IMG/VR virus record: IMGVR_UViG_2925908680_000007
Location: 3,851 to 67,850 of that record
Length of the DNA: 64,000 nucleotides
DNA from: a virus
Taxonomy: Duplodnaviria; Heunggongvirae; Uroviricota; Caudoviricetes
Strand: one strand, 5' to 3'
Shown here piece by piece: positions 1-21,000 of the stretch (within the stretch, counting starts at the first letter, position 1; each line of letters begins with the position of its first letter). A program made the position numbers.

Positions 1-3000
1 TTAACCGTAATAATTGACGCCTTTTTTCTTGCCACTGGCTTTCCCCTTTGCAGAAATATCCGTGGCCAGCGACAGATTCAGCGAAAATCCCTGTCCCGGT
101 GCCAGTGAAAACTCCACAGACTCAGCCTGCCAGTGATGGTCCTCGCGCACACCAAATCCCTGCGTGATAAAACGCATCTCCGCCCCTGCTTTCAGCAGTT
201 CCGGTCTGCAGGGCAACGTTATCGTCATCTGGCGTCCGGCTTTCTGCACACGTTTAACCTTCGACTCTGCACAGTGTTTTGCCGTGCTCTGGTCAGGCTG
301 GGTAAACGGATGTCGTTTGTCTGTGGATTCAACATCCACTTTAACTTCACGCGTGCGTCCGTTACGGGCATCAAAATACCGGACGCCCACTTTCCCGCTC
401 TTTTCATCCCCCTTCGCACTACCCGCTGCGCCCTGTCGCTCACCTTCACGATAATCCCAGTCTGATACCATACCCGGCGTAATGGTTATCTCAGACGCAT
501 TTCTGCCCCCCGCACTCTGTGATGCCCCGTATTCCAGAAATAACCAGTAGCCATTGGTCGGTTTACTGGTGGCGCCGTACATACCTGCAATGCGGGACAG
601 GAGGGCAGCATCAGATTCTGATGACTGCATCACCCACGGGATATGAATATCAGCAAGCACCGGTGAGACGCGCGCCACCAGATTATTTTCAGTGGCGATG
701 GTTTTCACCAGGTCGCCCAGTGTGATATCGCTGAAAGCCCGGGTTTTCAGTGCGGTCACGTCTGCGCCATGTTTTGACGCATTCATGGGAGCTGCGGTGG
801 CATAAATGGTGATCCGGCGGGGAGGACCACCGCTTGCCACCTGACAGACTGTAAAGGTACCTTTATTTACCAGATTTCCGTTGAAACCCAGTCCCAGCGT
901 TAACACCGCGCCTTTCGGTGGTAACGCCAGCGTCTCGCTGAACAGCGTTATCATCAGTTCATCGGACCGCTTTGTGGCTGCACCATTATCGGTATATCGC
1001 AGTTCAGCCAGCCCCCGTTTCAGGGCCTTCGTGATATCCTGGCCTTCCGCTGTCAGGCTGAAATCCGGCTGATATTCATTCAGTCCCATAACTGAAACGT
1101 CTCCTTCACTTCCGGTTCATATACCCAGTCCGGCAACACGATTTCCACTCCCGACGGATAGACCGGACCAAGGTCAGCCAGCCCGGGATTGGCTTCCAGT
1201 ACCGCCGCCAGTGACTGGTTAAGCCCGGCACTGCCATAGTGTCTCTGACAGATGTCATCCAGCATATCGCCGTCAGTGGTCCGCCAGTTTTTCGCCATAG
1301 TATTTCAGCTCCAGTGTGAACGTTTTGTTCTTTGGCGCCCCGCCGGGAAGAAAGGACGTGGTGTTATCTGAATAGGCGGTTGCCACGAAATACCCCATCA
1401 CATCGCCTGTACTTGAGACCAGTAACTGCGGGGCCGGATTGTCATCCACCATCTGAACCAGCGTATCAAGGGCATCCATTCCCACACCGTCACGAAATCC
1501 CGCATGCACCATGCCTTCAAGGGTTATTGTTCTGGCCCCCTTACCGGTATACTGCAGCAGGTCGTTTTTTCCGATAAGCTGCTGTTCATCCCATCGCCAT
1601 TCCATAGTGCGCTTCATGGCGTTATAGGCTGCCGTATCAATACTGAATTCAAACTCACCAAACGACAGCATGACGCGGGAGGCGACATCCGTTAATGAAC
1701 CCACCGCATCCCATGCTTCACGTTCAAGCCGGTTTACGCCCCAGCCCAGCAAATCCACCATGTTCACCCCCAGAATGCATCACCATCGGTCATGCGGGAA
1801 CGCTGACCAAAATTAATATCTCCCAGATTTTTCGTTACCCTGTCTGCCAGTTGTCCGGCATCCTCGCCGGGCTTCTGAGTGATGTTAAATTCCGCCCGTA
1901 TCTGATACGTGGGTTTTACTTCCACCTGGCTGATACTGCCGGGGGTATACTGAAGAGCCGAGAGAGGGTCCGAATTACCCTGCCCCTGATCTGCTGCAGG
2001 AAGTCTGTCAATGTAGGTGCGGGATTTCTCTTTTATCGCCTTAAAATCAGGTTCTTCTTTCGGTCCCAGCAAAGGGTCGAGAAATGCATCAAACTTTTTA
2101 TCGTCATGATTCCATGGGAGATAACCGCGAGTGTCTTTATAGGCCTGTACAACCTGTTTCGTCAGGTCCGGATTTTGCCTGAGAAGTTCATCAAACCATT
2201 CACCCTGACCGTTTTTCTGCGCCACCGCTCTCGCCAGCTCCGGCGACCCCATTTTTGCCAGATATTCCAGCACTTCTCGTCGGTCCTCTCGCGGATCATC
2301 CGCCAGCCCCCACTCAATGGCTTTCTGCGTTATTCCGGCAAGAACTTTTCCGAATTTCCACATCCACGCAGCCATGTCGATCAGCGCCGGCAGGGCATCA
2401 TCACGGATAAATGCCCGGATTTTTTCAAGTCCACCATTCTTAAACCAGGCCGCAAGATCATCCGTCACTTGTTGAATATGTGGTGCCAGCTCCTTACCCA
2501 GTTTCCCACTGATGTCATCAATGGAAGAACTCAGAACATTACGGAAATTTGACAGCGCCACATGGCCCTGAACTGCACCATCAGCCCCTTCTTTTGTCAC
2601 CAGGTTATAGCGTTTCTGCTCACTGATAAGCTCCCGGAAGGTTTTTCCTGACAGACGCATCCAGGTCAGAATTTTATTGGCCTCCCCCCCAAACAGCGCA
2701 TCTGCCATCCCCGCCGCCTGCTGCTCATTCTCCACCTGCAGTAAGCGATCAAACAAAAATTCGACCTGTTCCTGGTTGTTTTTTCCGGCCATTACGCCCG
2801 CTTTCAGCCCCAGTTTACCGAATACCTCCTGAATGGCTCCTTTGTCCGTGGCACCATTATCATCGTCAAAAACCTTGTTCCGGTATTCCTCAAACAGATC
2901 ACCAATGTTTTCGCCGTTTAACCCCATCTGACGGCCCAGTGAATCCCACGCCGCATAGGTTTCGTAATCCACCCCGTAACTCCGGGCTATCCCTGCCCGC

Positions 3001-18000: not shown

Positions 18001-21000
18001 CAGCGCATCCAGCCAGTCGTAGACAATCTGCACCCAGGTGGTGAACGGACTGTACGCCGTCCAGATGTGGTACGAGATTGAGCGCGGTGGCGGCATCTCC
18101 TCATCACCGGCGCTGTAAAATGTCAGGCCATCACGCGTCCACATCCCGGTATTGTCACAAATCCAGCGTCCGTCGATCTGGTCAAGTTCCGACTGCCGGA
18201 TCACACAGCCATTATGTTCACACAGGTAATACACCGTTTCCGGTTTACCCTTCTCCCATTTCAGGCCAAACGGCGTCGCATCATCGCCAAACTTCAGATA
18301 CTGGGCCTCCCCGCAATGAGGGCAAGGGACATAAAACCGCATGAAATGCGCAGATTCATTCGCGGCTTTCTCAATCTGACAGGAGCCTTTAATTTTTGGC
18401 GTTGAGCCGCGTATGGATTTAGGCCATACCGAGCCTTCGATACGTTTATCGCCAAGCAGCGTCGGCGAACCTTCTTTTTCCACATCCGGTTCAAACGAGG
18501 AGAGTTCGTCATAGCAGACCACATCCACAGATTTTTCACGGTAGTTTTTAGCTGCGGCACCGCCCAGGCACCAGAAACCCACACCGGAGGAAAAACGCTT
18601 CAGGGTGAGTGTATTATCGCGGTGCTTTCTTCCGAACCATGGCGCCAGCTCCAGCAATGCAGGAACATCCCTGATCGTTGGCTCAACATGAGATTTCATG
18701 AAATCTTCTGCAGCAGAATCTGTTGGCTGAAAAAGCAGACTGTTACGGGATTTATGCTCAATAAAATAAGCCTCCACCCCCAACAGCATTTTGGTGTAAC
18801 CAACGCGCGCCGATTTAATCAGATTAACGGTGCGGATCCGGTCATTTCCCATGCTGTTCATAATGGCAACCTGAAACGGCAGGGTTTCCCATTGCCCGGG
18901 GGTATATGAAGATTCTTTCGGCAGATAATAATGTTGATCAGCCCACTGAACCGTCGTCAGTGGAACCGGAATATTGAGAGATAAAAGCCCTGTAGCTACC
19001 GCACCGGCTGCATTAGCTGCCTTCTGTGCGTCTGAAATCATCAATCCACCTGCCCACGTTTTCACCGGCTTTAGCTGCAACATTGGAGGCTTTCGCGATT
19101 TCAGTTTTCACCACATCAAGGTGTGACGGTGAAATATCCGGATATTTACGCTGTAATGTCAGCGGCACACGTACAAGTATCCCCGAAATCTCCTGTGCCA
19201 CACGTTGCAGAATGAAGGTAAACAATTCCGTTTCCAGCACCAGCCCTTCTTCACGGGCATTTTTCAGCTCCTGTGCGTCAGCCTGTGCTTTGGTGAGCCG
19301 GTAGCGTTCATAGTCAATGGTGCCGGGTTGTAAATCTGATTCTGCAGCCGCACGCAAATCTTCCAGTTCTTTGCGGAGCTTTTCGTTTTCGATATCAGTT
19401 TCTCTCTGCGCGTACCACTGAATTGCCATCGCGGTATCAAACACAGATTCAACACCCTTGCTACCTCCGGAGACGCAAGATAGCCCCTGAGACTGCCAGC
19501 GTTCAATCGTTCGCGGATCCACGTTGAAAATTTCGGCAAGTTTCTTTTTGTTAACTTTCACAATACATTTCTCTATCAAATACAGGGTCCGACATGAAAA
19601 CGCTTAAAATGCCCTTTTTCGGGTGTTTTCATGTCGGACCTTTTACTGATGTGATGTCAGAAAAAACAAATAGTTATGCGCGAGAAGTACCGACATGCTT
19701 TTTCCTGAAAAATTTTCATAAATAGCGCGTTTTTGCGCGTGCTATGACCCCCGGTGTTTCAGATTCTGGAAAGGACCCGTAAAACGTGAGGTAAATCACA
19801 CACATATCAATAAAGCAATATTGAAATACGCGCACAAAACCACAATGTTCGTATGGTCACAATGTTGTGATGTTTTAATCAGGATATTTTTATGAAAAAA
19901 ACAGGCATTCCATATGGAAGTGATACATCTTCTGGGACGTACTCCTGTGATGATTGCGGATACACTTTTACAAAATCCTCCAATACATCCCTCCCACCTT
20001 GCCCAAACAGAAACGTTAAGGAGCATACGAAAAACTCATGGACTGCTTTAAGCGGCCAGGGTGATGCAAAAGAAGATCCATATCCGTAATGCCTTTGCGC
20101 CCTTGTCAGGGCGCATTTTTATTTCTTATTAACTAATTACAACAAGCATTATCGCAGCCCCTCACTGAAGGGCTGCTGTAATGCCTGTTACTCAGTAACA
20201 ACTGCGCCTTCCGGTAATTTCATACCGGCAAATACCGGACAGCCCGGATGGCGATCATCTTCTGTTGCTTCCAGCATTGACTCACCAAACCACTCCGTCG
20301 TGGCGCGACCATCAGCTGCTTTGTAGTGGATCAAGTACTGGTTTTCGCCATACGCATACTGCGCGCGGGCTTTAACCTCACCCCATTCATCACTGATGCG
20401 CATCTCCACCAGTTGAGACAACTCAAACTTAAACGGAGCAGCATCAGCACCAATTACAATCGGTTTGTTTTCTGTTTTTTCCATCATCGTCTCCTGATAT
20501 CGAAGCCCGTCGCCGCACCGGGCACTGATCAACATTTGAGTATTCGCGGCGACAGAAAGAATTTATTTTATTGAATAGCCACTAACACAGAATTTCATGC
20601 TTTCCGGACGCTGGCGAACCCTTCATTTTTCAGCAAAATATTCTGCTTTTACAGGTGATCAGTTCTGCAGACACTGCCGAACGCCATCGATAAGCTGGCA
20701 GACCTGAGAAGCCGCATCGAAAAGCTGGCGCGCCTTATCCAGGCTGACGCATCCCACCAGAAAAAAAGGCACCAGTATCGCTACCAGTGCCCATTTCGCC
20801 GTCGTTCGCGGCACTCTGTGTGTCCAGTGTTTTCGCGTCATAACACCACCAACGCACAGCCCAAATCAGAACAGCGACCGCCACAAGGCGAATTGCAAAG
20901 GCCGCAGCCCTTGTCAAATCAAGGCTCGCGGGAGTTTCCACTTCAATACCTTTCATGATGGACAACCTCAAAAAGAATCTTTTATACTTTCCCACGAGGA

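Follow-up and report, generated by a model that had tools for sequence, protein, structure and literature searches.

The genes for particle assembly were analysed in a prophage of pig Escherichia coli that carries the toxin gene stx2e and lies in a 64,000-nucleotide stretch of DNA (i.e. positions 3,851 to 67,850 of IMG/VR virus record IMGVR_UViG_2925908680_000007; hereafter the window). In this prophage, a lambda-type head and packaging module is joined to a contractile-tail module of the P2/pyocin type, and the particle-building set comprises 25 contiguous genes, all on the minus strand, running from position 19561 to position 1 of the window. The array is very probably one co-inherited late operon that would encode the whole virion of a temperate, lambdoid-regulated myovirus, a reading in which assembly, expression and inducibility are taken from homology and from the collinear Vibrio phage Valp1. 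The pairing of a lambda-type head with a P2/pyocin-type contractile tail is real and is already known from imaged phages such as Valp1. An earlier note on this DNA had described positions 1-19579 as a hybrid virion module of lambda-like head genes and a P2-ordered tail operon. This interpretation was right in substance but is only partly supported, as corrections were required to the tail order, to the origin of the combination (i.e. an old, co-inherited module) and to its context (i.e. an Stx2e prophage with a virion module unlike that of phage P27).

Head and tail genes were assigned by PHROG and Pfam scans, and identities were obtained by BLASTP to reference phage proteins (values given after family or structure names are E-values). 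The order of transcription was Nu1-A-W-B-C-D-E-FI-FII, two neck genes, V-W-J-I-H-G, sheath, tube, E/E', tape measure, U, X and D. All of the genes named in the earlier note were recovered in the order given there and inside 1-19579, where every substantial open reading frame (ORF) is on that strand; the pair of genes separating FII from V (10743-11465 and 10180-10731) had been skipped. Neighbouring genes of the module overlap or have gaps of no more than 69 nt. No integrase gene, attachment site or insertion sequence (IS) element was found inside the 25-gene array, and none of the 25 virion genes was interrupted by a frameshift or stop. The span required adjustment at its proximal edge, as Nu1 most likely starts at a GTG at 19561 (position 19579 being the start of the longest ORF) and the putative cos region, at about 19590-19790, falls just outside it. 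Position 1 belongs to the stop codon of D, so that the window cuts the distal end of the module.

The head half reproduces the lambda-type head module, with both the Nu1-gpA terminase pair and the gpW-gpB-gpC-gpD-gpE-FI-FII order being present. From Nu1 to FII, the gene order was identical to that of lambda and phage 21, with 33–65% protein identity to lambda. A small terminase of the Nu1 type (182 amino acids (aa), 19013-19561; PF07471, 2.7e-82) was 52% identical to lambda Nu1 and exhibited 88% DNA identity to gene 1 of phage 21, whilst the large terminase of the gpA type (638 aa, 17125-19041; PHROG 15, E = 0) was 65% identical to lambda A. These are followed by a gpW head-tail adaptor (69 aa, 16912-17121; PF02831, 4.1e-25; 49% to lambda W), a portal of the gpB type (15344-16867; PHROG 21, 7e-180; 62% to lambda B) and an S49 prohead protease/scaffold of the gpC/Nu3 type (538 aa, 13738-15354; PHROG 53, 2.5e-217; 55% to lambda C). 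The shell genes encode a head decoration protein of the gpD type (13364-13699; PF02924, 2.1e-22; 56% to lambda D) and a major capsid protein of the gpE type (342 aa, 12266-13294; PF03864, 7.8e-66; 59% to lambda E over 341 aa). The module is completed by the DNA-packaging gene FI (11850-12215; PF14000, 7.9e-13; PHROG 92, 5e-32; 40% to lambda FI) and the head closure/head-tail joining gene FII (11446-11850; PF05354, 6.3e-13; PHROG 82; 33% to lambda FII and 36% to its homologue in Hafnia phage yong2). DNA-level identity to lambda and phage 21 was limited to Nu1-E, where it amounted to 75–78% apart from the higher value for gene 1 of phage 21. No single phage record matched the region at the DNA level over more than 29% of its length, the matches being to lambda-group head genes only.

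Two further features of the head genes were noted. Gene C contains an in-frame 138-bp tandem repeat (13865-14371; 3.7 copies of a 46-aa unit, 79% matching) in its scaffold part, because of which the protein is 99 aa longer than lambda C (538 versus 439 aa); the C-terminal part of gpC matches Nu3-type profiles (PHROG 8940 and 8399). Additionally, the profile of PHROG 2353 (i.e. 'major head protein', 481 positions) was split across two reading frames in 11850-13294, positions 1-314 matching gpE and positions 317-481 the FI ORF, indicating that some database phages evidently annotate E and FI as one fused protein.

The putative cos region (19590-19790, minus strand) was read directly from the sequence upstream of Nu1. 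It carries a lambda-like stretch, CTATTTATGAAAATTTT, resembling the lambda sequence beside cosN, and three GTCCGACATGAAAAC-like motifs, two of which are inverted, in an arrangement like that of the R sites of lambda cosB.

Between head and tail stand two neck genes. The FII gene overlaps the first of these (10743-11465), whose 240-aa product had no lambda or P2 homologue by BLAST. From its PHROG label (i.e. 'tail completion or Neck1') and its location in the position of lambda Z, this protein is tentatively assigned as a tail-completion protein that would join FII to the collar. The second gene (10180-10731) encodes a 183-aa putative tail collar/terminator without a Pfam family. A profile of this protein and five homologues (i.e. 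six sequences) matched the R2 pyocin collar over its full length (PDB 6u5f_A, 'Collar PA0615'; E = 5.6e-11), as compared to an E-value of only 0.22 when the protein was used as a single sequence.

The tail half contains a full contractile-tail series in which V, W, J, I, H, G, sheath (P2 FI), tube (P2 FII), U, X and D exhibited 22–49% protein identity to P2 by BLASTP and E was matched by Pfam. The baseplate genes encode the spike/assembly protein V (9573-10196; PHROG 9992; 26% to P2 V and 53–55% to the homologues in yong2 and Citrobacter phage Chris1), the wedge protein W, a gp25-like sheath initiator (9183-9539; PF04965, 3.2e-15; 39% to P2 W), J (8294-9208; PF04865, 6.9e-22; 41% to P2 J) and the baseplate/tail protein I (7711-8301; PF09684, 8.5e-36; 34% to P2 I). 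Tail fibre H (6485-7714; PF12571, 3.2e-14) combines a P2-type N-terminal collar domain with a C-terminal part that is 82% identical in protein and 94% in DNA to L54 of phage P27, and the fibre assembly chaperone G (5940-6482; PHROG 136, 5.8e-60) is 40% identical to P2 G and 70% to P27 L55. The contractile sheath (491 aa, 4410-5885; PF04984 and PF17482) matched the R2 pyocin sheath PA0622 in the PDB (6.9e-53), with 37% identity to P2 FI and 64% to yong2, and is followed by a tail tube of the P2 FII type (3895-4413; PF04985, 3e-22).

The tail assembly chaperones E (3534-3836) and E+E' (3397-3836; PF10109, 6e-12) are encoded by overlapping frames. The E reading frame contains T TTT TTG at 3576-3570 in the zero frame, and the -1 frame is open to 3397, giving a 146-aa E+E' product by a -1 frameshift; the same heptamer is found at the annotated frameshift site of P2. 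The tape measure (550 aa, 1764-3416) had neither a Pfam match nor a BLAST match in P2 and was assigned by position, by size and by 34–36% identity to the genes in the same slot of yong2, Chris1 and Valp1. The distal genes encode tail protein U (1273-1761; PF06995, 1.2e-27; R2 pyocin 'ripcord' PA0626, PDB 6u5b_h, 3.6e-15), the LysM-like tail protein X (1080-1298; PF05489, 2.4e-19; R2 pyocin 'glue' PA0627, PDB 2ltf and 6u5b_6; 49% to P2 X) and the baseplate hub D (362 aa, 1-1089, stop at 1-3; R2 pyocin hub chain 6u5h_C, 1.8e-19; 38% to P2 D), for which the PF05954 match was below cut-off.

The earlier statement that the lambda tail series Z-U-V-G-T-H is missing held up, as tblastn searches with lambda Z, U, V, G, T, H, M, L, K, I, J, stf and tfa found no match in the 64-kb window (E < 1e-3). 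The P2 head proteins (Q, P, O, N, M and L) and R/S likewise had no tblastn match in the window. The description of the tail as P2-ordered was correct for the two operon blocks (i.e. V-W-J-I-H-G and FI-FII-E-T-U-D), which run in the same order as in P2 with homologous genes, but not for X and the collar. X lies between U and D, whereas it follows L in P2 and phiCTX, and the collar lies directly upstream of V; both are pyocin/Hapunavirus-type features. The matches of sheath, U, X and D to the R2 pyocin, whose consecutive PA locus numbers reproduce the order seen here, show that the order of the tail is that of R2 pyocin (PA0615-PA0628) and of the Hapunavirus clusters and not that of P2 or phiCTX. 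The tail genes of P2 and phiCTX are, moreover, split among separate Ogr-dependent operons with inserted genes, whereas the module in the window lacks both separate late promoters and an interposed orf30 or fun(Z). The R2 pyocin of Pseudomonas aeruginosa, for its part, shares the collar, sheath, U, X and hub D homologues in the same relative order but is a headless bacteriocin without packaging, capsid, FII or tail-completion genes, whilst the tail in the window is preceded by a full head module and a cos-like region.

Comparison of the whole module to reference phage genomes, as proposed in the earlier note, identified a collinear cassette in Vibrio phage vB_VaM_Valp1 (OR500391), a telomeric temperate myovirus. 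Valp1 carries, in the same order, TerS, gpA, gpW, portal, S49 protease, gpD-like, gpE-type capsid, a gene in the FI position, FII, tail-completion, collar, V, W, J, I, fibre, sheath, tube, E, E', T, U, X and D, and it also has a Q-like antiterminator. Of the 25 window genes, 20 had BLASTP homologues in Valp1, which are arranged in the same order and are 26–52% identical, the means being ~39% for the head half and ~40% for the tail half. As head and tail are equally diverged from Valp1, the combination appears to be old and to have been inherited as one unit. Sequence comparison thus places the lambda-head/contractile-tail combination in an established, old lineage and not in a fresh lambda × P2 hybrid, and the notion of a lambda-P2 junction was not upheld, there being no DNA-level similarity to P2. 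Valp1 differs in being a linear-plasmid prophage with a protelomerase and ParAB, whereas the window element has an integrase and lies at ssrA; it also carries an additional PAAR gene and a further small gene that separates V from W, and it has unrelated fibres, no toxin and a Vibrio host. By electron microscopy, Valp1 is a myovirus whose icosahedral head measures 60 nm and whose contractile tail measures 90 x 20 nm (PMC11054321), which backs the earlier prediction that the module encodes a myovirus with a capsid of the lambda type. For the present phage, a contractile tail would be expected from the sheath, tube and baseplate genes and from the micrographs of Valp1. Scaled on the tape measure of Valp1 (596 aa for 90 nm), the 550-aa tape measure would predict a tail length of ~80–90 nm.

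Other relatives share parts of this arrangement. The Hapunavirus phages (i.e. Vibrio phage VP882 and Halomonas phage phiHAP-1) have a gpA-type terminase, a lambda-family portal, an FII-type head closure protein, the same two neck genes, the order V-W-J-I-fibres-sheath-tube-E-T-U-X-D and a Q-like antiterminator. These phages are classed as myoviruses, with P2 homology confined to the V and F tail operons (Lavigne et al., PMC2771037). They differ in having a protease-capsid fusion of the HK97 type (S78 + PF05065 in VP882) without separate gpC, gpD and gpE, in their 19–40% identity to the window proteins, and in being telomere phages without an integrase. No protelomerase was annotated in the window element, which is instead chromosomal, with a tyrosine integrase and 30-bp ssrA repeats. 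The closest sequenced phage tails were those of yong2 and Chris1, with 41–64% protein identity from the neck genes through D. Both are temperate, lambdoid phages of Enterobacterales that integrate and that carry gpA, gpW and a lambda-family portal, but their tail is permuted (i.e. V, sheath to D, then W-J-I-H-G), their capsid is a ClpP-capsid fusion, and identity to the window in terminase and portal is only 23–25%. The cassette as found here was present in no phage among 50,697 records, the best tail protein identity being 64%.

The module belongs to an Stx2e-converting prophage of ~43.5 kb that is integrated at ssrA. The right end of the prophage is formed by an exact direct repeat (30 bp, 40726-40755) of the 3' end of ssrA (transfer-messenger RNA), the partner of this repeat being ssrA itself, ~2.8 kb to the left of the window, and a tyrosine integrase gene (39394-40593) lies directly before the repeat. 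At ~90% of the length of lambda, the prophage is compatible with a lambda-size capsid. The genes stxB2e and stxA2e are located at 22898-24139 (RefSeq annotation), with holins and an endolysin between stx2e and Nu1, and with three tRNA genes (at about 24224-24477), a methylase gene and Q upstream of stx2e.

This framework is shared with the Stx2e phage P27 (AJ298298), which exhibited 89–97% DNA identity to the early, Q, methylase, tRNA, stx2e and lysis region (window 20146-39251). No P27 match was found over 7242-20145, and inside the module only the fibre-tip gene (94% DNA identity) and the chaperone gene (76%) matched; a second fibre pair resembling L56/L57 is located immediately beyond the window. 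The terminase, portal, protease and capsid of P27 are of the HK97 type and its contractile tail is of the Mu/SfV type; P27 also has another integrase and integrates at yecE. As identity to P27 ends abruptly just upstream of cos/terminase and at the integrase, both the virion and the integration modules have been exchanged relative to P27.

The module region was 100% identical to that of the pig Escherichia coli strains U90 and cq9. In U90, two further tail-fibre genes (P27 L56/L57-like, 95% and 78% DNA identity) lie between D and ssrA, outside the window. At least 80% of the virion module was detected in 70 of 5426 complete E. coli genomes, with 96–100% identity among the 15 best matches listed, and the stx2e-terminase junction was detected in 14 of the complete E. 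coli genomes. Yang et al. included one carrier, STEC383, in their comparison of prophages, noting no more than that Stx2e prophages differ in their morphogenesis regions (PMC8705337). No prior description specific to this Stx2e prophage type was found in the literature, and nothing relevant was found on a lambda-like head with a P2-like tail.

Expression of the module was considered from the regulatory genes of the element. A Q antiterminator gene (28323-28670; PF06530, 6.9e-46) is situated upstream of the module. No Ogr-type activator was found within the prophage, the only ogr homologue in the window (46047-46451) being that of an adjacent P4-like satellite. Because the only ogr belongs to the satellite and Q lies upstream, we infer a lambda-style late control, in which the module is most likely expressed as one Q-antiterminated late transcript including stx2e and the lysis genes rather than from four Ogr-dependent promoters as in P2.

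Several observations weigh against a complete and functional late operon of this kind. Inside the array, four GC-rich terminator-like hairpins with T runs occur on the minus strand (13342-13318, 12262-12242, 5921-5904 and 3876-3859), directly after the gpD, gpE, G and tube genes. These hairpins may set expression ratios or may need Q-mediated readthrough, and readthrough is assumed here. The 12-mer of lambda cosN, GGGCGGCGACCT, was not found with up to one mismatch allowed (0 matches). The cosN sequence, the tail genes and the repeat in C distinguish lambda and phage 21 from the window. The distal end of the module beyond D was seen only in the matching genome, as the window stops at the D stop codon. 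Finally, one study of porcine Stx2e strains detected no intact prophages by PHASTER (PMC12571312).

This last report also bears on the possibility that the module is intact but the prophage functionally cryptic (i.e. an SOS-inducible carrier of stx2e and lysis genes that yields no infectious virions), as Stx2e strains are often reported to be without inducible or 'intact' prophages. Such a state is unlikely for the element in the window. A 2.7 kb IS66-family insertion is present in the early region of U90 (record positions 3867408-3869996, in a DUF4222 gene) and an IS66-like element lies within the module span in one related genome, but the window has no insertion at the U90 site (~38900), and its 25 virion genes, frameshift site, cos-like region, Q, lysis genes, repressor and integrase are uninterrupted. 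The window thus does not come from U90 itself, in spite of the full identity over 1-19579. The module was moreover found in strains from pigs, poultry, humans and a rodent with 96–100% identity among the best matches, and this near-identity across host sources suggests recent horizontal spread.

It is very improbable that two unrelated remnants simply abut, with a lambdoid prophage lacking tail genes lying next to a P2-like remnant or an R-type tailocin cluster and with head and tail not belonging to one particle. Although the block from collar to D is collinear with the headless R2 pyocin (PA0615-PA0628) and such tailocin clusters are common, capsid and packaging genes and a cos-like region are contiguous with these tail genes, so that the array does not constitute a headless R-type tailocin. 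From FII to the tail genes, no integrase, att repeat or IS element intervenes and the coding strand does not change; FII overlaps the gene that follows it; and a tail-completion/neck gene, which tailocins do not need, stands between FII and the collar. The same order of head plus tail is found in the imaged, complete myovirus Valp1 and in VP882 and phiHAP-1, and one ssrA repeat pair brackets a single 43.5 kb element. A recent, laboratory-style hybrid, for which a lambda/21-like phage would have recombined with a P2-like one inside E. coli, is hardly credible. It would account for the 75–78% DNA identity of Nu1-E to lambda-group coliphages (up to 88% with phage 21 gene 1) and for the mosaicism of the H and G fibre genes with P27, but no DNA-level match to any Peduoviridae phage was detected, the tail proteins being 22–49% identical to P2 and nearer (41–64%) to yong2 and Chris1. 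X and the collar are, furthermore, in pyocin/Hapunavirus order rather than P2 order, and head and tail are equally distant from Valp1, as expected of one old module.

For one co-inherited late operon, the following course of events is proposed. SOS cleavage of a LexA-family repressor would lead to synthesis of Q, and one antiterminated late transcript would then carry stx2e, the lysis genes and the 25 virion genes. The Nu1/gpA terminase would cut at a lambda-style cos and fill a capsid made of the gpB portal, the gpC/Nu3 protease-scaffold, the gpE shell and gpD decoration, after which the portal would be sealed by gpW and FII. A separately assembled tail, capped by the 183-aa collar and the 240-aa tail-completion protein, would dock onto FII. 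This tail is predicted to consist of a V spike, a U-X-D hub, W-J-I wedges, H fibres with their G chaperone, a tube measured by T with the aid of E/E', and the sheath. Relative to P27, the whole virion module has been exchanged and the P27 fibre tips have been kept.

Pyocin-type tails are found with several head types, namely lambda C/D/E (here and in Valp1), a ClpP-capsid fusion (yong2 and Chris1) and an S78-HK97 fusion (VP882). It is possible, though doubtful, that the pyocin-type tail is accompanied by a portable docking unit, made up of FII, the 240-aa protein and the 183-aa collar, through which it could accept different heads. Such modularity could have let a P27-type Stx2e phage in this E. 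coli lineage swap its whole virion and keep its receptor-binding fibres, the result being an uncultured, transmissible Stx2e myophage without an isolated representative.

Other features of the window were also recorded. An AT-rich island (34% GC; 26185-28292, plus strand) with three genes (encoding 350, 130 and 221 aa) separates Q from the late genes and replaces L22 of P27. Pfam and PADLOC scans of the island gave no match, and it could represent a moron or defence cassette of an uncharacterised kind. The P4-like satellite (40937-52120) is arranged in tandem with the prophage and contains an integrase gene (40937-42136), a gene for a DUF2326 protein that resembles PDC-M68B/LmuB and is accompanied by two small partners (42137-44589; annotated as an ABC-three-component system), a cos of the P2 type (45116-45169; 96–100% identical to P2 over ~70 bp), psu and the ogr/delta gene (45951-46451 for ogr/delta) and a primase (49787-52120). 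Parasitism of this prophage by the satellite was considered and rejected, as the satellite cos is of the P2 type and nothing in it resembles the cos region of the prophage.

The virion module adds one more case in which modules were exchanged at the joint between head and tail and does not establish a new principle. Stx2e causes oedema disease of pigs, and the toxin is carried on at least two quite different virion types (i.e. that of P27 and the lambda-head/pyocin-tail type) behind a near-identical early, toxin and lysis region. This gives a concrete form to the published observation that Stx2e prophages are 'variable' in their morphogenesis regions (PMC8705337). An isolate would fill a gap in reference phage collections, and the virion type bears on predictions of host range and particle stability and on the detection of free Stx2e phages.

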